Source: Oscillospiraceae bacterium (GTDB taxonomy: Bacteria; Bacillota; Clostridia; Oscillospirales; Ruminococcaceae). Taken from it: DNA of 64,000 bases. Made by a program: the position numbers and the translations under genes. The DNA is taken from NCBI GenBank assembly GCA_902766785.1, contig CACXEO010000080.1, positions 17,332 to 81,331 on the forward strand, in the 5' to 3' direction. Below the pieces are notes generated by a model. That model was not told the DNA's origin, ran no database searches, and saw nothing but the letters and a program-made list of their open reading frames with translations. This document shows positions 29,823 through 51,970 of this stretch, in pieces; within the stretch, counting starts at the first letter, position 1, and each line of letters begins with the position of its first letter.

Positions 29823-30203
29823 TTATTCTGCCGCCTTTACCGCCCTTTTGTGTTGATAGGAGCGTACCCCCTTGACAACCGAAGAGGCCAAGAAAACACC
29901 TGCCAGTACAAACGGACAGTCAAGTACTTCGGGCGAAGCAATCCAAGATATCAGTTCAAATTGGGACAGTATCCACCCAACGCTGCCTATGAAAATTACA
30001 AGATCGGTAACCCAGCCGGAACGAAGCAAAAACGCTGCCAGCGCCACAAGGAGGGCAATTATTCCAAGCCCGATATCAGGAACCAACGGGGGAATGGAAA
30101 AGTGGGGCGCACGCGCCAATGCTTCATAGTACAGGTTTAAAAGCCAGGGCAGCGCCAAAAAAAGGATTGCTTTGGCAAAGCACATCCAATAACACTTTTT
30201 CAT
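29823..30203 (-). CDS. Small hypothetical membrane protein (about 4 TM).
   Basis: 126 aa, hydrophobic throughout, located in a low-GC islet. No recognisable family. Confidence 0.4.
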   Translation of the reverse strand: MKKCYWMCFAKAILFLALPWLLNLYYEALARAPHFSIPPLVPDIGLGIIALLVALAAFLLRSGWVTDLVIFIGSVGWILSQFELISWIASPEVLDCPFVLAGVFLASSVVKGVRSYQHKRAVKAAE

Positions 30204-30215
30204 GGTGAAACTCCT

Positions 30216-30932
30216 TTATATTGCGTAATAAATCAAATCCGCATTATAATTATACGAAGCTGTTCCTTTTTTAAACGTATAAGTTCCAAACAAAGAAAGT
30301 TGAGAAGATTGGGTAGCAACATTTTGTACCCAAAGGTTCTGTTCAAAAATATATGTCATATCATCTAATACCGTACTGCTTTTTGTCCCACTCCAAGTAG
30401 CGCTTGCATTAATAGAAGATACCTGTCCATAATCTATGCTGGTTTTGGCCCAAGTATAACCTGTATTCACGCTTACCACTTTAGCCTGAACACTTCTTAA
30501 CCTAGTAAAAGTAGTACCACGTGAATCAACTTTCTCTTCAAAACCAATTCTTTGATAAATCCTACCATATGTACAGGTATAATTCCTGTCTAAAGAGCCT
30601 GAATTGGCAGTAGTTGAAAAAAGGCTTACTAATAGGACTACGCCGTCATCTTCTTCAATCCTTTTTGAAACAGCTGTGTTGATTACTGTATCATCCTGAT
30701 TGTTGTTTTGTACAACACTTGCACGCGCAATACTACCCCGCTGAACATTTTGAAGCGTCAGGTAATCCTGTTCCATCTCTTCATAATAGGAACCATATTG
30801 GTCTAAAATTTCTTCGGTGGACAAAAAATCTTCCGCCTCATTACCCGATATATCACTTTATGCATTAACAAAAAAAGCGCTAGAGCTTACAACAAATAAT
30901 ACCGATATAACAACACTGATTAATCGTTTCAT
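30216..30932 (-). pseudogene. Hypothetical secreted Asn/Ser/Thr-rich protein gene interrupted by an in-frame TAA (30858-30860) directly after a predicted signal peptide.
   Basis: ATG at 30930-30932 encodes MKRLISVVISVLFVVSSSAFFVNA, then TAA. The same frame continues as SDISGNEAEDF-STEEILDQYG... through the 202-aa ORF called from a TTG at 30824. Confidence 0.45.
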
Positions 30933-31186
30933 GATAACGCCGCCTTTAATTATATTAACTACATGATTTTTCATCTTCTGTTTCAATATTTTGTTTAAAT
31001 AAAAAATTCATTGGAATCGACTCCTTTGTTATAACTATATTGCTTATATATTAATAATAAGCCTTTTATTAACATTATACAATATAATATATATTGAATG
31101 TTAATAAAATATATGAATTATTTATAAATATATTACTAGATATAAAAAGGCATCCGGGCCAGCCCCAGATTCCTTTTTAGCTTTTT

Positions 31187-31861
31187 CTATTTTCCTTCCA
31201 GTGGAACTACTTTCAGGTAGACCGCACGGTGGCGGTTGGTAATCACCTGATCCCGGTGAAGTTTACCGAAAAACCACTGCTTAAACTCCACTGTTTTACC
31301 GACCTTTTCAAGCACGTTGTTGATTCTGGAGTTGACATCAATCGGTGGGACATTTAAAAATTCACAGATGCTGACCGGCGCGTCATGGGTGATGATATAA
31401 TCCACCTTGTTGCCCCATTTTACCAACTTTTCAAACGCGTTTGCCTCTTCTTCCGCAGTCGGCTGTTCTTCCGGCCACCAGAGGTTGTTTTCCTCACGCA
31501 GCATTCCATCGGCGCTTTCGCCCCCGCCAAACGCGAAAAAGGTTTTTCCCTCCAGCGTGTATATTTCGCCGCGGCAGAGCTGCATCAACCGCCCTGAAAG
31601 AACCCGCACCGTTCCGCCGCACCATTCCTTTTCAGGATATTCCTTCAAGAGCTCGTAATTGTCATGGCAGCCGGTGACAAAAACAGTGTTAAACCGTTTC
31701 TTCCCTATTTTTTTGAGAAGCTTTTTCTCCTTTTTGCCGCCGTCCCAAACAAAGCCGAAATCGCCGCAGACAATCAAAGTGTCTCCCTTTTTCAATTTTT
31801 TAATCCCGGTTTTTTGAAAACGGCTAAACTCCCCGTGAAGGTCGCCGGTAATATAAATCAT
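31187..31861 (-). CDS. Calcineurin-like metallophosphoesterase.
   Basis: 224 aa. MIYITGDLHGE, GDFGFVWD and GCHDN motifs. Confidence 0.7.
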   Translation of the reverse strand: MIYITGDLHGEFSRFQKTGIKKLKKGDTLIVCGDFGFVWDGGKKEKKLLKKIGKKRFNTVFVTGCHDNYELLKEYPEKEWCGGTVRVLSGRLMQLCRGEIYTLEGKTFFAFGGGESADGMLREENNLWWPEEQPTAEEEANAFEKLVKWGNKVDYIITHDAPVSICEFLNVPPIDVNSRINNVLEKVGKTVEFKQWFFGKLHRDQVITNRHRAVYLKVVPLEGK

Positions 31862-32133
31862 AGTTTTTCGCCCTCGCTGTCTTTTGCGTTATTCTGCCGT
31901 GCACTTGATAGCCCGGTGTAAATCGGCTATAATAATCTGTGACGTCTTTGACGGCATTCTGAAATTTTGACGCCGGTTTTTGCCGCGCCATTCAGGCCAA
32001 TTTTTCAATTAAACGCGGCGCCGTATATCAAGCAGGCCGCAGACGGCAGTTCCGCTGTAACAGCTCTAAAAAGCGGTCTGCCGAAAAACTTGGAATTATT
32101 CTTATCATACACTTAAATGGAGGAATTGTCTAC

Positions 32134-43918: not shown

Positions 43919-45331
43919 TTAGTTTTTATCTGTTGACGAGATATCGACAAACTTTGATTTATCCGGGTCTTTATCGGCTTTCTTGCCGAGAAATTCCGGA
44001 AGCTCCATCCCCGCCATATTAAACAGCTCACTCATTGGAGGAATGGATTTCATCATGCTGGACACAAAATTCGCCGTACTGGAAGCCCCGTCTTTGCCGC
44101 CTAAGCTGTCCCAGACAGTGACCTTGTCGATCTTCAGGTTCTGGATGGCCTCAACCTGGGTCTTGACCAGCTCTTCCAGCTTGTCGGCAATCATCAGCCT
44201 CATGGCGTCGTTTGCATTGCCGCCAGCCGCTGCAACAATCTGGGAAAGACCGGAGGCCTGCTTGGTGAGCATTTCCTGTACACCGCGGGCTTCCGCTTCC
44301 ATTTTGGCATAGATCGCGTCTGCTTCACCCTTGGCACGGCGGCGAATCTGCTCAGCTTCGGCTTCAGCCTGAAGTTCCATTCTGCGTTTCTCAATTTCCG
44401 TTTTAACAATGATATCGGCTTCCTGCGTGGCCCTTTCACGGGCGGCACGGGCCTGCTCAGCCTCCTGCTCGGCCACATAAGCTTCCTGAAGCGCCCTTGC
44501 CGATTGGATCTTCTCAGCGGCAGTCGCGCGGCGCTGAGCGTCAGCGGCTTTTTCTGTCAAGGTTGCGTTGGACTCGGCAATTTGAGCTTTCGCCTCATTT
44601 TCACCCTTAATTGCTTCAGAATCGGCCAACGAAACCTGCACCCTCTGTTCACGGTAAGCGTTCGCTTCACCAATGGCACCCGACCGGTCGGCTTCCGCAA
44701 CTGAAATTTTCGCGTCGTTAATAGCTTTTGCGGCCGCCTCTTTACCAAGAGCGGAAATGTACCCGGACTCATCGGTAATATCGGTGACGTTTACGTTGAT
44801 CAGCCGCAGGCCAATTTTTTTGAGCTCCGACTCAACGTTATTGGATACAGCGGCAAGGAATTTGTCGCGGTCGGTGTTGATCTCTTCAATCTCCATGGTG
44901 GCAATGACCAGGCGCAACTGACCGAAGATGATATCCTTCGCAAGCTCCTGGATTTCATTCAGTTTCAGGCCGAGCAGGCGCTCCGCGGCGTTCTGCATAA
45001 CACCGGGCTCCACTGAGATGCCTACGGTAAAACGGGACGGAACGTCAATACGGATGTTCTGCTTGGACAGGGCGTTTTTCAGGTCTACCGAAATTGAAAG
45101 CGGGGTCAAATCCAGGTATTCATATGCCTGGAGGACCGGCATGATAAACGCCGCGCCGCCATGGATACACTTAGCGCTGCGGTAAGTGCCGTCCTTATTG
45201 GAGCCGACCTTACCATAAACCACCAAAATTTTATCGGACGGACATTTACGGTACCGGGACAGAATGACGATAATTGTGGTCAGCACCAGAACGGCGATAA
45301 CCGAAACTAAAATAACTATGACTGGATCCAT
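43919..45331 (-). CDS. floT: Flotillin (SPFH/band-7; FloT/YuaG-like) with a long Ala/Glu-rich coiled coil.
   Basis: 470 aa. N-terminal TM, an SPFH domain, and EA-repeat coiled coil (AEQEAEQARAARERATQEAD...). Confidence 0.85.
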   Translation of the reverse strand: MDPVIVILVSVIAVLVLTTIIVILSRYRKCPSDKILVVYGKVGSNKDGTYRSAKCIHGGAAFIMPVLQAYEYLDLTPLSISVDLKNALSKQNIRIDVPSRFTVGISVEPGVMQNAAERLLGLKLNEIQELAKDIIFGQLRLVIATMEIEEINTDRDKFLAAVSNNVESELKKIGLRLINVNVTDITDESGYISALGKEAAAKAINDAKISVAEADRSGAIGEANAYREQRVQVSLADSEAIKGENEAKAQIAESNATLTEKAADAQRRATAAEKIQSARALQEAYVAEQEAEQARAARERATQEADIIVKTEIEKRRMELQAEAEAEQIRRRAKGEADAIYAKMEAEARGVQEMLTKQASGLSQIVAAAGGNANDAMRLMIADKLEELVKTQVEAIQNLKIDKVTVWDSLGGKDGASSTANFVSSMMKSIPPMSELFNMAGMELPEFLGKKADKDPDKSKFVDISSTDKN

Positions 45332-46005
45332 TGAGAAATACCCCCTCTGTTATTTGTTTTTTCGTCCGGCAGTTCGACCAAAACCGTCTGCTCGTCTACC
45401 ACGCCACAAACGCGGATTAACGCACCGGTCTTAATCTGCTGTGCGGCCTTTGTCACCGCGTCCAGTTCCACCAGACGTTCCTGCAGCATCACTGTAACCT
45501 TCCCCTGGCCTCCTTCCTTTGGTGGAACGGGGAGGTATACCTTACCAGTTTTCCCCACCGCGTTCCTAATATCAAGATTTCCTCTATCCTGAAGCTTTAA
45601 AGCCGCTTTAAACATATATGCAACCCCCACCAAAGCGGCTGTGCCGGCGGCAAAAGCAATAACAACTGCCCAAAACGGGCCGGTGTACTTGACCAAAGCA
45701 AGGCCCAGCCAGCCGCCGACCGCAAAAAATGCAACCAGGCCCCGGATGGTAAACAGCGAAAGGCCGCTGTCAGCGTCGGCAACATCGTGCATATCCATAT
45801 GACCAGCGTCCCCGGCTGAACCGGCGTCAAAATCCGCGCTGAGATCAGTATCCAAGCCCCCCGCGTCGGCTTCGCCGCCGCCGAACCCAATGCCGAACAA
45901 CAGCAGGATGGACTGAATGACCAGCACCACCGTAGCCGCAATTGCAATACATGCAAATACCTGTTCCAGAATGGTCAGACTGTTCCACCAAGCCAACATT
46001 TCCAT
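45316..46005 (-). CDS. nfeD: NfeD-like membrane protein (YuaF-like) with a C-terminal OB-fold. Overlaps floT by 16 nt.
   Basis: 229 aa. Two membrane segments, an acidic linker, and a C-terminal beta-barrel region (KVTVMLQERLVELDAVTKAAQQIKTGALIRVCGVVDEQTVLVEL). Confidence 0.7.
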   Translation of the reverse strand: MEMLAWWNSLTILEQVFACIAIAATVVLVIQSILLLFGIGFGGGEADAGGLDTDLSADFDAGSAGDAGHMDMHDVADADSGLSLFTIRGLVAFFAVGGWLGLALVKYTGPFWAVVIAFAAGTAALVGVAYMFKAALKLQDRGNLDIRNAVGKTGKVYLPVPPKEGGQGKVTVMLQERLVELDAVTKAAQQIKTGALIRVCGVVDEQTVLVELPDEKTNNRGGISQWIQS

Positions 46006-46848: not shown

Positions 46849-47112
46849 TCAGTCAACTTTAGCAGAATAAAGGAAGTCGCCGGGTTTTGCCTCCGCCAGC
46901 CTTTTGATACAGCGCTCACAAATGAAATATTCGCCGATCCGCACCAAGCCGGAAGCGGCATTGCAGATGATACACCCGTCAACTGCCTTCCTGATTACAA
47001 TTTCCTGATACGCCAGTTCCACCTGTAACTCGTCTTGCTCCCCCAGCTCCAGGTATTCCCTTATAATTTCAGGCAGTGTAATACGCCCCTGGGAATCCAT
47101 TTTTATCCGCAT
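46849..47112 (-). CDS. AbrB/MazE/SpoVT-type swapped-hairpin DNA-binding domain fused to a C-terminal CxxC...CxxC zinc ribbon.
   Basis: 87 aa. MRIKMDSQGRITLPEIIREYLELGEQDELQVELAYQEIVIRKAV followed by CIICN...CERC. Confidence 0.5.
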   Translation of the reverse strand: MRIKMDSQGRITLPEIIREYLELGEQDELQVELAYQEIVIRKAVDGCIICNAASGLVRIGEYFICERCIKRLAEAKPGDFLYSAKVD

Positions 47113-47231: not shown

Positions 47232-47417
47232 ATGAAGAAGAACGAAAAGCATTTATCTCTCAGAATTGATGCTGACTTGCTGCAAAAGTTTAGTTATGTA
47301 GCCAAGTATGATGACCGCTCTATGAATTGGATGCTTTTAAACTTTGTTCGAAGATGTATTGACGAGTTTGAAAGAGAACACGGTAAAATACCCGAAAATT
47401 TAGAAAACAAAAATTAA
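47232..47417 (+). CDS. Small ribbon-helix-helix (CopG/Arc-like) protein.
   Basis: 61 aa. LSLRIDADLLQKFSYVAKYDDRSMNWMLLNFVRRCIDEF. Strong RBS AGGAGG and an immediate terminator. Confidence 0.5.
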   Translation: MKKNEKHLSLRIDADLLQKFSYVAKYDDRSMNWMLLNFVRRCIDEFEREHGKIPENLENKN

Positions 47418-47444
47418 AGGCGAGGACAGTTGTCCTCGCCTTTC
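47418..47444 (+). terminator. Terminator hairpin directly after the RHH gene.
   Basis: AGGCGAGGACA-GT-TGTCCTCGCCT followed by TTTCAT. Confidence 0.6.
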
Positions 47445-47446
47445 AT

Positions 47447-47752
47447 AACCCCCAGCCGCCTGACGATGACAGCCCCTTACAAAAGGGGGCTTGGAGCGTT
47501 CAATTAAAACACGTACGGCCAAAAACATGTGGAAAGAAACCATGTACGATTCGCAAATTGCCCGCCGGGATTCCCTGCATCCTCCTTTTGTAAGGAGGCG
47601 GCACACGGAGTGCGGCGGAGGATTGCCTATAAGGAACATGGCGTCTCGCGGGCGGAAAACGTTTTTCCTTTTCTCACCTTCAATGCGCGGATTGTCTTGC
47701 CCGGCCACGGGCAAACCCTGACGAAGGGGTGCCGTCCGTACCCCAGGCAGAA
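47447..47752. ncRNA. Candidate structured noncoding region of about 300 nt between two convergent terminators. Family and strand are unknown.
   Basis: No credible ORF. Multiple GC-rich local hairpins (AGCCCC-TTACAAAA-GGGGCT; CCTCCTT-TTGT-AAGGAGG; TTGCCCG-GCCA-CGGGCAA) and long-range complementarity (GCATCCTCC...GGAGGATTGC). Confidence 0.3.
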
Positions 47753-47753
47753 T

Positions 47754-47788
47754 CAAAAAACACGCTGTATAAAACAGCGTGTTTTTTG
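47754..47788 (-). terminator. Bidirectional terminator ending the ydjH-like operon.
   Basis: AAAAAACACGCTGT-ATAAA-ACAGCGTGTTTTTTG. The minus-gene stop overlaps the T-run. Confidence 0.85.
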
Positions 47789-47789
47789 A

Positions 47790-48623
47790 TTAAAATCCCC
47801 TCGTGCCGCCGCCATGGGTACGGCCGCTGCTTGAGGTATGGGTGGAACTTCTTCCGGAAAACCCACCCGATGAGCGGGAACCGCCCGAAGGAGGATTTGA
47901 GTTAATCCTCCGGCTGGTGACCGTCTGGTTGATGAAAACATCTTCGCTTCTGGTGAGCTTTATCTCGCTCTTTTCACGGAAAGGATAGCTGTTCCGGTCC
48001 GCTTTTTTCCGATAGCGGACAAAGACGACGGCACAGCAGACCACACCGGCCGCAACGGCGATCAGTGCAAAAATGAAAATCTCCTGAACGGAGAGGCTTT
48101 TTTCCCGGGTTATCTTGCCGGTTTCCGTATCATAGTTGTGCTGGTCACTGGGAATCCCGGTTTTCATATACTCCTCAGCGCCGTCCAGAAAAGCTTTTGC
48201 CGCCCCGGCGTAATCACCGCCGCTGACATAGCCGTAGGCTCGGTCTAAAAGGGCTTCAATCCGCTCATCAGTAAAATACCGCACGCCGTCCGCATGGGTC
48301 GAAATACCGAGATTGCGGTTATCCATGTCGATCAGGAACAAAACGCCGCTGTCATCCCCGCCCGCGCCGTATCCATGAAAATCATAATAATCGTCAGCGT
48401 AGGCCTGGGTATCCTTCCCCTGCGCGTCATCTGTTGTGACAAAGACAAAATCCATGTTGGGATAAGTTTCACAAAGCGCGGCGATCTGCTCTTCCAGCCC
48501 GTCTGCCTCTTCGTCCGTCAGAAACCCTGCTTCATCTATAACACGGGGCTCTGCCGCAGCAGCCGGGAGGACAAAAAAGATTATCAGAAGCAAGGAGAGG
48601 CCATAACCGATCAAACGTTTCAT
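47790..48623 (-). CDS. ydjH: TPM-domain membrane protein (B. subtilis YdjH-like) with a Gly/Ser-rich C-terminal tail.
   Basis: 277 aa. Signal/TM, then a TPM domain (IDEAGFLTDEEADGLEEQIAAL...FVFVTTDD...GVLFLIDMDNRNLGISTHADG), a second TM, and a GGSRSSGGFSGRSS tail. Overlaps the next gene by 4 nt (ATGA). Confidence 0.65.
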   Translation of the reverse strand: MKRLIGYGLSLLLIIFFVLPAAAAEPRVIDEAGFLTDEEADGLEEQIAALCETYPNMDFVFVTTDDAQGKDTQAYADDYYDFHGYGAGGDDSGVLFLIDMDNRNLGISTHADGVRYFTDERIEALLDRAYGYVSGGDYAGAAKAFLDGAEEYMKTGIPSDQHNYDTETGKITREKSLSVQEIFIFALIAVAAGVVCCAVVFVRYRKKADRNSYPFREKSEIKLTRSEDVFINQTVTSRRINSNPPSGGSRSSGGFSGRSSTHTSSSGRTHGGGTRGF

Positions 48624-49675
48624 AACAGGTACCCTCCCAACCCCAGCAGAAGAAAAAGCCCTGCCGCAACAGAACCGAACAAAATTGCAAGCCGTTTCCA
48701 GCTGACCGGCAGCCTGCCGCAGACTTTTCCGTTCTGTCCATTCATCACATAATAGTAAAGCTCATCATTTCGGCGGTAAGTTAAAGCCCAAACCGGGAGA
48801 AGGACGTACTGCGCATCCTCCCTTTCGGGCTTTATACTGGTGTTTTGAAGCTGAACCGCTGTATACCCGGTCATGGTTCCCCGCAGCAGGGCTTGGGTGT
48901 ATTCATTTATGTCATACTGCGCTTCTTTAAAAACCGCATCTTTATCAATATCCCTTTTTTCGGCCTGAAAGCCGGAAAGGTAAGCCATGGTAAAGTCCTG
49001 TACCGCCCCGCTGTCAAAAGGCTGAATCCCCTCTGCCAGCTCCCGGTTTGCCTTGGTCAGCGCGTTTTTCAGCAAATCCCTGTACCGGATTTTCCCCTCC
49101 CGCACCAGGCGGTAAAAGCTGGTTTGGGTATATTCGGTGTTACCGGTGCGCCAGACCAGCACCTTCTGGGCGGACGCCTCTACAGCCGCATCCACAGTGC
49201 AGTCCAGGATCCAATAAGGGTAATAAACACCGGTCAGTTTTTCAAGCTGCGCTTCGCTGAAAAAATCCCTTGGGACAAAGCGTTTCTTTTTTATCCAGGA
49301 AAGGAATTCTTGCACCGCCTCCTCCCGGCTGATCCGGAACGGAACAACCTTATCCGGGCGGAAAGCGCCGTCCAGCCGTCCGGAGAGGACAACCGGATTA
49401 TGGCAGTAAAAGCAGGTGGTAGCGGCCGTTGTGGAATCGGTTACGATTTCCGCACCGCAGCTGGGGCAGACAAAGAACGCCGCCTCACCTTCCACCGCTT
49501 CATGTTTTTCCTCTGCCTGCGGCTCTGCCGTCTCAGCGCTGCTTTCGTCCTGCTTTTTCAGGTCTTCTTCCGCAAAGAAGGAGCCGCAGTAATGGCAGGC
49601 AAACCTCTGTGCAGTCGGGTCAAAGACCAGTTCGCCGTCGCAGTTGGGGCATTTATAGGTCACAACCGAAGCCAA
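48620..49675 (-). CDS. ydjG: Double zinc-ribbon protein with a C-terminal TM helix (B. subtilis YdjG-like).
   Basis: 351 aa. CPNCDGELVFDPTAQRFACHYCG and CPSCGAEIVTDSTTAATTCFYCHNP, with a C-terminal LAILFGSVAAGLFLLLGLGGYLL. Confidence 0.6.
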   Translation of the reverse strand: MASVVTYKCPNCDGELVFDPTAQRFACHYCGSFFAEEDLKKQDESSAETAEPQAEEKHEAVEGEAAFFVCPSCGAEIVTDSTTAATTCFYCHNPVVLSGRLDGAFRPDKVVPFRISREEAVQEFLSWIKKKRFVPRDFFSEAQLEKLTGVYYPYWILDCTVDAAVEASAQKVLVWRTGNTEYTQTSFYRLVREGKIRYRDLLKNALTKANRELAEGIQPFDSGAVQDFTMAYLSGFQAEKRDIDKDAVFKEAQYDINEYTQALLRGTMTGYTAVQLQNTSIKPEREDAQYVLLPVWALTYRRNDELYYYVMNGQNGKVCGRLPVSWKRLAILFGSVAAGLFLLLGLGGYLL

Positions 49676-49721
49676 ACCGTCTCACACCCCCCGTTCGTCT
49701 TCATCTCAGGGATCACTTTTC

Positions 49722-51029
49722 TCATTTACGATCCTCCGGGCCGATCGGATCGCCGCACTCGGGGCAGAACTTGGGAATCGGCAGAGACATATCCGGCTCA
49801 TAGCCGCATTTATCACATTTAATTTGTGTGGAATCCGGTTTTGCCTTGCCGCATTCCGAACAGAATTTGCCGCTGTTTTTACTCCCGCAGCTGCAAACCC
49901 AGCTGTTATCCTCCGGCTTCGGCTTGCCGCACTCGCTGCAAAACTTCCCCGTATTTACAGCGCCGCATCCGCATTTCCAGCCCTCGGCAGCAGGAACCGG
50001 CGGCACAGCCGGCGCCGCCGCTCGGTTCGCCGCCATCTGCTGCTGGTTGGACTGGGACGCCGCGCCCATAAATCCGCCGCCGGCCTGCATTCCAACGCCC
50101 ATCCCCATGAACCCGGCCATACTGCCGTTTGCGTTGGAGCCCGCCGCCTCCATGCCGCGCGCTACCGCACCCTGGACGTATCCTTCCCGGACGTTCGGGT
50201 CGCCCAGCATCGCGCCCTGGTTGCGCATGTTAATCAGCTTCTGCGACCCCTCGTCATATGAAATACTTGCAATGCCGACCGACTGAACCTCCATCCCGCG
50301 GAGCTGGTTCCAGCTCTCGTCCAGGATGGTGCTCATATACTGGCTGAGCTCCCTTCCTTTAGAGGGGACGAAGGAGATCCGGACGCCGTCGGCAGACATC
50401 TGGTTGATCGCCGCCTGAAGGGCTTCCAAAAACTCTGAAAAATACTGTTCGTTAATGTCGTTAATATCCACGATATCCCGGTCACGGGGAATCGCCTCGC
50501 TGTAAAACTTAATCGGATCCTTGATTTTAATCGAATAGGTTCCATGGGTGCGCAGAAACAGCTCAGCGTTATAAAAATTGTCAAAGTAATTGATTGGGTT
50601 CCGGGTACCGAACTTGATCCCCTTGATCTCCTGCAAATTGATATAATAAACCTTCTGGAGCGTCGGGGTTACGCCGCCGTACTTGAAACGGCTGAATGAT
50701 TCCTTGAGGGTGTCGCCAAACTGGCCGTTGAAAAGGGAAGGCAGGGAGGAATTGTTGACGGTGTAGTACCCTTCCTCCGCTGTGTAGTCTACGATTTTCC
50801 CGCCGTCTACCAGCATCATGAACTGGTTCGGATAAACATGGATGACCGAACCGTTTGAAACGGTGTTGTCCGTCCCCTTGGTGTTGCTGTTACGGCCATC
50901 CCCCCGGCGCACCTTGACTCCGCTTGTAAACACGGTTGTATCGCTCATCCGGTCGGGCTCTAAAACCTCCAGCCACTGGTCAGCCAGCCCGCCTCCGACA
51001 GCGCCGGCTAACGCTTTGATCATTCCCAT
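49722..51029 (-). CDS. ydjI: YdjI-like SPFH-superfamily (virion-core-like Band_7_1) protein with C-terminal tandem zinc ribbons. In B. subtilis this family is a PspA membrane-anchoring partner.
   Basis: 435 aa. MGMIKALAGAVGGGLADQWLEVLE..., RRGDGRNSNTKGTDNTVSNGSVIHVYPNQFMMLVDGGKIV, a Gly/Met-rich linker, and GWKCGCGAVNTGKFCSECG...WVCSCGSKNSGKFCSECG...CDKCG...CPECG. Confidence 0.8.
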   Translation of the reverse strand: MGMIKALAGAVGGGLADQWLEVLEPDRMSDTTVFTSGVKVRRGDGRNSNTKGTDNTVSNGSVIHVYPNQFMMLVDGGKIVDYTAEEGYYTVNNSSLPSLFNGQFGDTLKESFSRFKYGGVTPTLQKVYYINLQEIKGIKFGTRNPINYFDNFYNAELFLRTHGTYSIKIKDPIKFYSEAIPRDRDIVDINDINEQYFSEFLEALQAAINQMSADGVRISFVPSKGRELSQYMSTILDESWNQLRGMEVQSVGIASISYDEGSQKLINMRNQGAMLGDPNVREGYVQGAVARGMEAAGSNANGSMAGFMGMGVGMQAGGGFMGAASQSNQQQMAANRAAAPAVPPVPAAEGWKCGCGAVNTGKFCSECGKPKPEDNSWVCSCGSKNSGKFCSECGKAKPDSTQIKCDKCGYEPDMSLPIPKFCPECGDPIGPEDRK

Positions 51030-51068
51030 CTGATGTTCCTCCTGTCTCTTGATTTACTGTTTATTTCA

Positions 51069-51096
51069 AGGGCGTTCCGCAAAACGGAAACGCCCT
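51069..51096 (-). promoter_or_regulatory. Hairpin between the lead gene and the ydjI-like gene (possible attenuator or processing stem).
   Basis: AGGGCGTT-CCGCAAAACGGA-AACGCCCT, immediately 3' of the stop of the 51098-51853 gene. Confidence 0.35.
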
Positions 51097-51097
51097 T

Positions 51098-51853
51098 CTA
51101 GCGCACCTCGTAATAGCGGTTAATGGTCCACGCGTATTCGTTGACCTCTTCCACAGCACCTCCACAGTATTCACAGACTTTTACACCCAGCCCCGTAACC
51201 GGTGCGCCGCAGCTGGGGCAGGTCAGCCCCGCTGCCTTGCCGCCTGAAACTGCGCCGTATTTTGCGGCGTCCTGAATATAGACAAGCTCCGTGTTATACT
51301 TTGTCTGAACCGTTTGTTCCCTGTCGCCAGAGACCAAGGCGCCGTCTTTTTCCGTAAAATAACGGTGACCCACGGCGCTCTGCAACGTTACGGTACAGCA
51401 CCCGCCGCCCTTTCGGTAGCCCGAAATTTCGGTTTGATGGATCTGGACGTCCAGATATTGCCGCCGGAGGCCGTTTCGCCGGTCTTCCTGAATCCCGAGC
51501 GAGACTTGCTTTTTCAGCTCCGCAGAGGCGTTTGTCAAAAGATCCGGATTCTGCTCAGACACTGCCGCAAAGGCCGACTTCAGCATGTTTTCAGCCTTTT
51601 GCTTAAACTCCCCATAGTGGAACGCAGGAAAATCCTCCGCAATTTGCGGCAGGTAAATTTTTGTCATGCCGGAAACCGATTTAGGCGTTTCTGAAAGCCT
51701 CTCACGCTGGAGTTCGAACCCTTTCAAAAGGGAGTCCGTTCCAAACGCGGAACGGGAAAACCGCCGCAGCTTCCGCACTCCTGCATAAACCAAAATGGCT
51801 CCTGCCGTTACAACGACCACCGCCGCAACTGCCAAATAAACAAACCACTCCAT
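51098..51853 (-). CDS. Hypothetical N-terminally TM-anchored protein with a C-terminal zinc ribbon (possible Tim44-like middle domain). It is the first gene of the ydjI/G/H-like operon.
   Basis: 251 aa. FVYLAVAAVVVVTAGAILVYAGV TM, and a C-terminal CPSCGAPVTGLGVKVCEYCGG. Extended -10 TGTATAAT upstream at about 51895. Confidence 0.4.
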   Translation of the reverse strand: MEWFVYLAVAAVVVVTAGAILVYAGVRKLRRFSRSAFGTDSLLKGFELQRERLSETPKSVSGMTKIYLPQIAEDFPAFHYGEFKQKAENMLKSAFAAVSEQNPDLLTNASAELKKQVSLGIQEDRRNGLRRQYLDVQIHQTEISGYRKGGGCCTVTLQSAVGHRYFTEKDGALVSGDREQTVQTKYNTELVYIQDAAKYGAVSGGKAAGLTCPSCGAPVTGLGVKVCEYCGGAVEEVNEYAWTINRYYEVR

Positions 51854-51970
51854 TTTTCATGCTCCCAAACCTGTATATAAAACTAGTGTCATTATACAAT
51901 GAAACAGCAAAACCGTCCAGTATAATCCCGCCTAAACCTATGCAGAAAACCAGGTAAAAATCACCATCCT

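Follow-up and report, generated by a model that had tools for sequence, protein, structure and literature searches.

An SPFH gene module of the YdjGHI type without a neighboring pspA and with a predicted Tim44-like partner in an Oscillospiraceae bacterium

The pspA-ydjGHI operon of Bacillus subtilis (samGHI) is under sigma-W control and is the sole studied example of its kind, interpreted through its link to PspA. YdjG and YdjH bring the soluble protein YdjI to the membrane, all three are needed for PspA foci, and a hairpin/terminator follows pspA (PMC8581546). According to a 2026 preprint, SamG-SamH acts as a membrane stress sensor restrained by the SPFH protein SamI, and SamGHI has PspA-independent functions in B. 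subtilis, PspA being dispensable for the SamGHI developmental phenotype (bioRxiv 10.64898/2026.02.06.704340). The published accounts that we found cover only this PspA-linked Bacillus operon (PMC8581546, PMC9239133, PMC11237479, PMC10936438, bioRxiv 10.64898/2026.02.06.704340), and Popp et al. make no lineage-level statement on the absence of PspA. Here, we analyzed a stretch of 64,000 nucleotides (nt) from an Oscillospiraceae bacterium (GCA_902766785.1, contig CACXEO010000080.1, positions 17,332–81,331, forward strand), hereafter the window, which carries a four-gene operon, X-I-G-H, composed of counterparts of YdjI, YdjG and YdjH behind a lead gene, X. The product of this operon is probably an SPFH membrane complex similar to SamGHI (YdjGHI) that works independently of PspA and is anchored by G/H, and X would act in it as a second membrane tether.

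The operon comprises four co-directional minus-strand open reading frames (ORFs) at window positions 47790–51853, listed below with lengths in amino acids (aa) and with transmembrane (TM) segments and zinc ribbons taken from a hydropathy and Cys-motif scan.

51098–51853, minus strand: gene X, 251 aa, TM segment, predicted Tim44-like domain and Cys4 ribbon
49722–51029, minus strand: gene I, 435 aa, Band_7_1-type SPFH protein, soluble, with three zinc ribbons at the C-terminus
48620–49675, minus strand: gene G, 351 aa, YdjG/SamG homologue with two zinc ribbons and a C-terminal TM tail anchor
47790–48623, minus strand: gene H, 277 aa, YdjH/SamH homologue with a TPM domain

A first-pass annotation of this sequence had described four genes with this domain content, and both are real: the ORFs lie at these positions, and Pfam and motif scans agree with the domains. 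Gene G begins with a TTG codon just preceded by GGGGGG, a G-rich ribosome-binding site, and the ATG of gene H overlaps the stop codon of G as ATGA.

The SPFH protein I matches PF13421 (Band_7_1) with 64.9 bits (gathering threshold 24), and several zinc-ribbon models also match. It has no TM segment, and its three Cys4 ribbons at the C-terminus follow a Met/Gly/Gln-rich linker; at the N-terminus it carries a conserved MGxIKA..ADQW motif. More than 100 clusters of I homologues were found at no less than 71% identity. Protein G has an N-terminal Zn_Ribbon_TF domain (34 bits, above threshold), a second CxxC..CxxC pair, a β-rich middle domain and a C-terminal TM segment at residues 326–351. In protein H, the TPM domain (E=2.6e-25) is placed between an N-terminal signal/TM segment and a TM segment at residues 176–205, and the C-terminal tail is rich in Gly, Ser and Arg. 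Sequence searches of the PDB with I and H returned no match.

As a B. subtilis-type reference, we used a contig with a 99%-identical PspA (L095), on which the three proteins encoded 3′ of pspA are 341, 255 and 323 aa long. Their Pfam assignments (Zn_Ribbon_TF; TPM; Band_7_1 plus zinc ribbon) are the same as those of G, H and I in the window. By blastp, G is 33% identical to YdjG over its full length (residues 4–351 vs. 2–337, E=1e-71), H is 24% identical to YdjH over its full length (E=5e-17), and I is 23% identical to YdjI over 351 residues (E=1e-11). Judged by sequence, the three window proteins are genuinely homologous to YdjG, YdjH and YdjI; the case is strong for G, whereas H and I are distant yet clear homologues. 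The counterparts proposed in the first-pass annotation are thereby upheld; for YdjI, homology stands, with PF13421 above its threshold, but at this low identity I belongs to a separate and longer subfamily.

The two operons thus share a soluble Band_7_1 SPFH protein with one or more C-terminal ribbons, a tail-anchored G protein with two ribbons, and a TPM-domain H protein with a low-complexity tail. They differ in several respects. The B. subtilis operon begins with pspA and continues in the order G-H-I, whereas the window operon has no pspA, is led by the extra gene X, which is unrelated to PspA, and continues in the order I-G-H. The SPFH protein of the window is about 110 aa longer than YdjI, has three ribbons where the tail of Bacillus YdjI has two CPNCG motifs, and falls outside the YdjI clade.

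We searched for PspA with two probes. The Bacillus PspA probe matched E. coli PspA (E=1.8e-15) and then two long metagenome contigs at 99% identity, a match that validates it. Together, the two probes recovered 80 of 80 PspA loci, over a range of 33–99% identity. No PspA-like ORF was found at E≤1 in the 64-kb window, which bears out the first-pass claim that pspA is missing from the operon and extends it to the whole window.

We then asked how common this layout is. A scan of species-representative genomes with an alignment of the SPFH protein yielded 80 loci, 58–98% identical to the window protein, from Oscillospiraceae, Lachnospiraceae, Christensenellales, Tissierellia, Erysipelotrichales, Bacillus sp. 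REN16, B. timonensis, Halalkalibacterium halodurans, Enterococcus, Tetragenococcus and Lactococcus. One of these (L014, SPFH protein 98% identical) is from the species of the window. Neighbors of the SPFH genes were classified with hidden Markov models made from the window proteins, and 66 of the 80 loci had enough flanking sequence. Among these 66, the arrangement was I-G-H in 53, X-I-G-H in eight, X-I in two and I alone in three. There was no pspA within 8 kb in the 80 species-level loci, and neither probe gave a match at E≤1 in loci L001–L093. I-G-H without pspA is thus the commonest form of the module among the sampled Firmicutes loci, and the same layout appears in an annotated Enterococcus gallinarum record as SPFH, hypothetical and TPM genes. 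PspA-free modules of other Firmicutes (Enterococcus, Listeria, Lactococcus, Bacillus sp. REN16, Halalkalibacterium halodurans, Hungatella, Roseburia and others) resemble that of the window in gene order, in SPFH subfamily (58–98% identity) and in having no pspA nearby, but unlike it they mostly lack X. Their annotation does not go beyond 'SPFH domain-containing' for the first gene, 'hypothetical' or 'TFIIB-type zinc ribbon' for the second and 'TPM domain-containing' for the third. Among named strains, Hungatella hathewayi DSM 13479 (NZ_CP102274.1) has I-G-H, and Chakrabartyella piscis BP5G (NZ_CP092441.1) has X-I-G-H.

A separate set of 80 loci, from metagenome contigs, was chosen for containing PspA. 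These included 27 P-G-H-I loci (P denoting pspA), 20 P-I loci and 27 loci with pspA alone, many of the latter on short contigs. We built neighbor-joining trees of I, G and H with midpoint rooting, and in each tree the PspA-linked proteins formed a single clade. In the I tree, the PspA-linked and PspA-free groups were reciprocally monophyletic, with 26% identity between groups and 66–69% within them; in the G and H trees, the PspA-linked clade was nested inside the PspA-free diversity. On the basis of these clades and the between-group identity, we assign the window to the common PspA-free type and treat pspA-G-H-I as a distinct lineage. The first-pass annotation had called the gene order of the window rearranged, a description that does not fit a layout predominant in the sampled Firmicutes, nor the confinement of the pspA-G-H-I proteins to one separate clade.

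These data bear on the possibility that the operon belongs to an ordinary Psp-type system, with pspA or liaH elsewhere in the genome; the chief role of I-G-H(-X) would then be, as in B. subtilis, to serve PspA as a receptor at the membrane. The requirement of YdjI/G/H for PspA foci (PMC8581546) speaks for it, as do the recurrence of pspA beside a YdjI-type SPFH gene in P-G-H-I and P-I loci and the fact that the PspA search of the window genome covered 64 kb. Nevertheless, we regard it as unlikely, given that pspA is absent from the flanks of all 80 species-level loci, that the PspA-linked SPFH proteins form a clade of their own, only about 26% identical to that of the window, and that SamGHI has PspA-independent functions in B. 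subtilis itself (bioRxiv 10.64898/2026.02.06.704340).

Several observations were made on unusual carriers and variants of the module. The roughly 20 P-I dyads lie mostly on human-gut contigs (L127–L146, e.g. L137:8001–9689), where no more than about 20 nt separate pspA from the next gene, which encodes a 328-aa YdjI-type protein with Band_7_1 and zinc ribbon; the dyads have no G or H and parallel the X-I dyads described below. In INPHARED, the SPFH-G(-H) module is present in unannotated 'phage' records flagged UNVERIFIED or UNVERIFIED_ORG (OR846934.1, OR848382.1, OR846590.1 (138 kb), MT837562.1 and others; L009–L013), with Listeria, Enterococcus or gut phages named in the module-bearing records. 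They are probably bacterial chromosomal fragments, so that these 'phage' matches would not represent phage carriage. A role in anti-phage defense was rejected, as the 'phage' database matches are unverified short records with bacterial I-G(-H) genes and PADLOC gave no support: its models did not match X, I or H, and G had only a weak, zinc-ribbon-level match to PDC-S64 (21 bits). Two gut 'Bacteriophage sp.' records (MT835641.1, MT836659.1; L012:6475–9043 and L013:5926–7101) encode Band_7_1 proteins whose C-terminus has no zinc ribbons and appears SHOCT-like by eye (KLAQYKQMLEQGLISEEDYEAAKKAALGL); in L012 the gene is followed by that of a 450-aa G-like protein (E=3e-77). Longer variants include an SPFH protein with PF26703 and a G-like protein with PF23145 and PF24460 (P0134, 629 aa, and P0245, 600 aa), as well as an 805-aa ORF (L050:3179–5596) whose C-terminal half is the SPFH protein and which may be an extension by ORF calling. 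Finally, an E. gallinarum 'plasmid' in PLSDB (pK205-4a-A, NZ_CP116511.1, 484 kb; L007) carries dnaX, recR, tmk, holB, rsmI and rplKAJL around I-G-H and looks like chromosomal sequence or a chromid.

The favored reading, a PspA-independent complex with X as a second tether, depends further on the nature of protein X. An N-terminal TM segment (residues 1–29) is followed by RRFSR, which places the C-terminus probably in the cytoplasm. Near the C-terminus, a Cys4 ribbon, CPSCG..CEYCG (C212/C215/C227/C230), precedes a final β-strand. All Pfam matches of X are below threshold, including Tim44 (PF04280, 22.8 bits, threshold 29.6), NTF2_YvbJ and zinc ribbons. We predicted its structure with AlphaFold2 from a 51-sequence alignment, and the model was confident except in the ribbon (predicted local distance difference test 88.1, predicted template modeling score 0.77). 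In the model, a long N-terminal helix is followed by four helices, three long strands, the ribbon and the final strand, and the helical layer packs on a long curved β-sheet as in the Tim44 C-terminal domain. Fold searches with this model returned Tim44, mL45 and NTF2-like structures, and no ESCRT-III, PspA or Vipp1 description was among the 50 and 60 fold matches listed. X had no Pfam match to PspA_IM30 (PF04012), and blastp of X against PspA gave nothing significant (best E=0.38). On the predicted structure, X is a Tim44-like (NTF2-superfamily) single-pass membrane protein and not a diverged PspA. The Tim44-like middle domain suggested by the first-pass annotation is therefore supported by fold, with sequence similarity below threshold, and the question it raised of whether X is a diverged PspA/IM30 is answered in the negative.

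Tim44 and mL45 are peripheral docking modules on the matrix face of the mitochondrial inner membrane. X is only 10–15% identical to the Tim44 C-terminal domain and mL45. Unlike them, it is a bacterial protein whose partner is an SPFH gene and not a translocase or ribosome, and it brings a TM helix of its own as well as a zinc ribbon, which is inserted ahead of the final strand. The ribbon of X resembles the first ribbon of G (hhalign 95.6% and 93.8%) and did not match the ribbons of I. Although first described as novel, X belongs to a large family: in a profile search of 1.84 billion representatives, 285 clusters (50% identity) passed E≤1e-30 and 831 clusters passed E≤1e-10, and at least 538 homologues, nearly all of about 250 aa, are present in a 90%-identity collection. 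Most of these have a precomputed PF04280 match plus a zinc ribbon, and their source names are generic ('zinc ribbon domain-containing', 'TIM44-like domain-containing', 'Tim44 family').

X is closely coupled to the SPFH gene. A Band_7_1 gene lies directly 3′ of X in seven of seven distinct loci sampled by X, and X lies directly 5′ of I in all ten X-positive species loci of the SPFH-sampled set. In Monoglobus, a distant 328-aa protein with Tim44 (76.9 bits) and a ribbon occupies the same position. X stands in front of the module in about 12–15% of species loci, all of them Clostridia, and about 80% of I-G-H modules have no lead gene. In X-less loci, the genes 5′ of I are unrelated (prfB, an AP_endonuc_2 TIM-barrel, an ABC-2 permease, hydrolases, AraC, VanW, ThrRS), and with such neighbors (prfB, the TIM-barrel enzyme, the permease, hydrolases and AraC) we also rejected the idea that divergent X-like proteins are hidden there. 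X thus tracks the SPFH gene and not the absence of PspA. The first-pass proposal that X takes the place of PspA does not agree with this distribution, as most PspA-free modules do without X and have unrelated housekeeping genes instead.

In genomes of the Lachnospiraceae type, the module occupies one syntenic site, VanZ-prfB-[module]-ACT-hom, in three forms:

X-I-G-H: L035, L058, L067 and L175
X-I: L001, L002, L049, L075, L176 and L177
I-G-H: L019, L046, L047, L061, L062, L066, L072 and L073

I alone was found in no case at this site, so the SPFH protein lacking a TM segment is the constant element, accompanied by X, by G/H or by both. The number of C-terminal ribbons in I was two in six of six X-I dyads, and among I-G-H loci it was three in 33 and two in 26. 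A 'ribbon code', in which the number or type of ribbons in I would track X or G/H, was rejected in view of this split and of the close phylogenetic relationship of the X-I dyads to one another.

We propose the following mechanism. By analogy with B. subtilis, G and H would form a membrane-embedded receptor or stress-sensing unit that recruits the SPFH protein I, and I would oligomerize and restrain or organize G/H. X may be a second, independent membrane tether or adaptor for I, as suggested by its own TM helix, its membrane-proximal Tim44-like domain, its G-type ribbon, its strict adjacency to I and its persistence with I where G/H are missing. The expected place of its TM helix and Tim44-like domain is the cytoplasmic side of the membrane, which would correspond to the matrix face occupied by Tim44 and mL45 in mitochondria, and its ribbon and the first ribbon of G may share one docking surface on a partner. 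PspA would not be an obligatory component, and any PspA would come from a distant locus.

Some points weigh against this proposal. The absence of pspA was established over 64 kb of the genome. The suggested role of X rests on gene adjacency, architecture and fold analogy, and carrying the B. subtilis function over to an SPFH protein only distantly related to YdjI is an extrapolation. The number of ribbons in I is not tied to the partners present. Furthermore, in three of the 66 loci none of X, G and H accompanies the SPFH gene, which makes an anchor encoded in cis no absolute requirement. The midpoint-rooted neighbor-joining trees hint at the ancestral arrangement but do not prove it.

By analogy with NfeD, X could instead occupy a cage formed by the SPFH assembly or be a client of it, or it could be a lipid-binding sensor that informs the scaffold. 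Genes for NfeD-type small membrane proteins adjoin flotillin/stomatin SPFH genes. One such SPFH-NfeD pair is QmcA-YbbJ (bioRxiv 10.64898/2026.02.06.704340). X-I follows the pattern of nfeD-floT and ybbJ-qmcA, in that a gene for a small membrane protein, here with a soluble β-rich domain, lies directly beside that of an SPFH scaffold. One X homologue is named 'predicted lipid-binding transport protein (Tim44 family)', and the yeast Tim44 crystal structure, which is among the listed fold matches of X, contains bound detergent (PDB 3qk9). However, X shares no homology with NfeD; a TM anchor is built into the classical SPFH partners of NfeD, whereas I has none and so needs one, and the fact that I never occurs without X or G/H at the syntenic site is a better fit to tethering. 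We therefore hold a client or sensor role for X to be quite improbable. That X replaces PspA as the effector, a Tim44-like protein doing the job of an ESCRT-III protein in a new variant of membrane repair, is very doubtful: X has the lead position that pspA has in Bacillus, X-I dyads mirror P-I dyads, and the lead gene has a hairpin behind it in the window species, like that of B. subtilis (PMC8581546), but X resembles PspA in neither sequence nor fold, being a globular protein with a membrane anchor and not a polymerizing coiled coil, and it is missing from about 80% of PspA-free modules, and the hairpin is not conserved.

With X as a candidate tether beside G/H, the module is an extension of a known system, not a system of a new kind, and its proteins are common and generically annotated. 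In the literature searched, we found no account of the predominance of PspA-free I-G-H modules, nor of the pairing of X with an SPFH gene. The survey indicates that these modules are far more widespread than the studied Bacillus example, spanning gut Clostridia, enterococci, Listeria, lactococci and some Bacillaceae, and this spread fits the recent evidence for PspA-independent signaling roles of SamGHI. X is a previously undiscussed, strictly co-located partner with a predicted Tim44-like fold, a TM anchor and a zinc ribbon, and its pairing with I yields a testable hypothesis for how an SPFH scaffold without a TM segment reaches the membrane when G and H are absent. More tentatively, stand-alone I-G-H may be an ancestral, PspA-independent envelope-sensing SPFH machine of Firmicutes, to which the PspA link of Bacillus was a later, lineage-specific addition, and the X family may be a new class of bacterial Tim44-like membrane receptor that, to judge from the X-I dyads, could on its own anchor an SPFH scaffold without a TM segment. 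If so, bacteria would use the Tim44 fold as a membrane-docking adaptor. These findings should be of use to specialists in membrane organization and envelope stress.

Signals at the ends of the operon and at the X-I junction were as follows.

51891–51919, minus strand: sigma-70-like promoter candidate, TGGACG-17 nt-TATAAT, 5′ of X, 10/12 matches
51068–51097, minus strand: hairpin between X and I, −20.1 kcal/mol, z=−3.7, without a U-tail
47751–47791, minus strand: terminator-like hairpin flanked by A and U runs, beginning at the stop codon of H, −24.9 kcal/mol, z=−8.7

The operon had been credited with its own extended −10 promoter. A sigma-70-like candidate is present, but the bases preceding TATAAT are TTG, without a TG motif, and it is not of the extended −10 type; promoter-like sites in the region are as numerous as expected from shuffled sequence, and the candidate is weak evidence alone. 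A hairpin after X and a strong terminator, also described earlier, were both recovered. The terminator hairpin was missed by a pattern scanner, presumably because its A and U runs pair and lengthen the stem. The X-I hairpin is kept only in contigs of the same species (L005, L006, L014), and most other X-I junctions are 15–35 nt long without a comparable hairpin. We therefore rejected it as a conserved attenuator akin to the B. subtilis pspA terminator.

A flotillin-like gene lies at 43919–45331, about 2.5 kb from the module. Its product reaches 163 bits with the NCBIfam FloT model, whose cut-off is 700, making it flotillin-like and not a FloT equivalog. The gene 5′ of it and overlapping it (45316–46005, minus strand), previously labeled nfeD, encodes a 229-aa membrane protein with no Pfam or NCBIfam match at E≤0.01. 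In module flanks, a flotillin homologue was found only in L014, from the same species, and, distant and on the opposite strand, in L091. Thus, a flotillin-like gene is indeed nearby, but the 'SPFH island' of module and floT-nfeD was rejected, as the adjacency is not conserved across species. Two small genes sit between the module and the flotillin operon. One (46849–47112, minus strand) encodes an 87-aa protein whose N-terminus gives weak MraZ/MazE-type matches and whose C-terminus, rich in Cys, weakly matches Gin. The other (47232–47417, plus strand) is a divergent 61-aa ORF with no Pfam match, followed by a strong hairpin at 47416–47443. Elsewhere in the window, G+C content is 0.41 at 30001–32000, compared with about 0.50 for the remainder.

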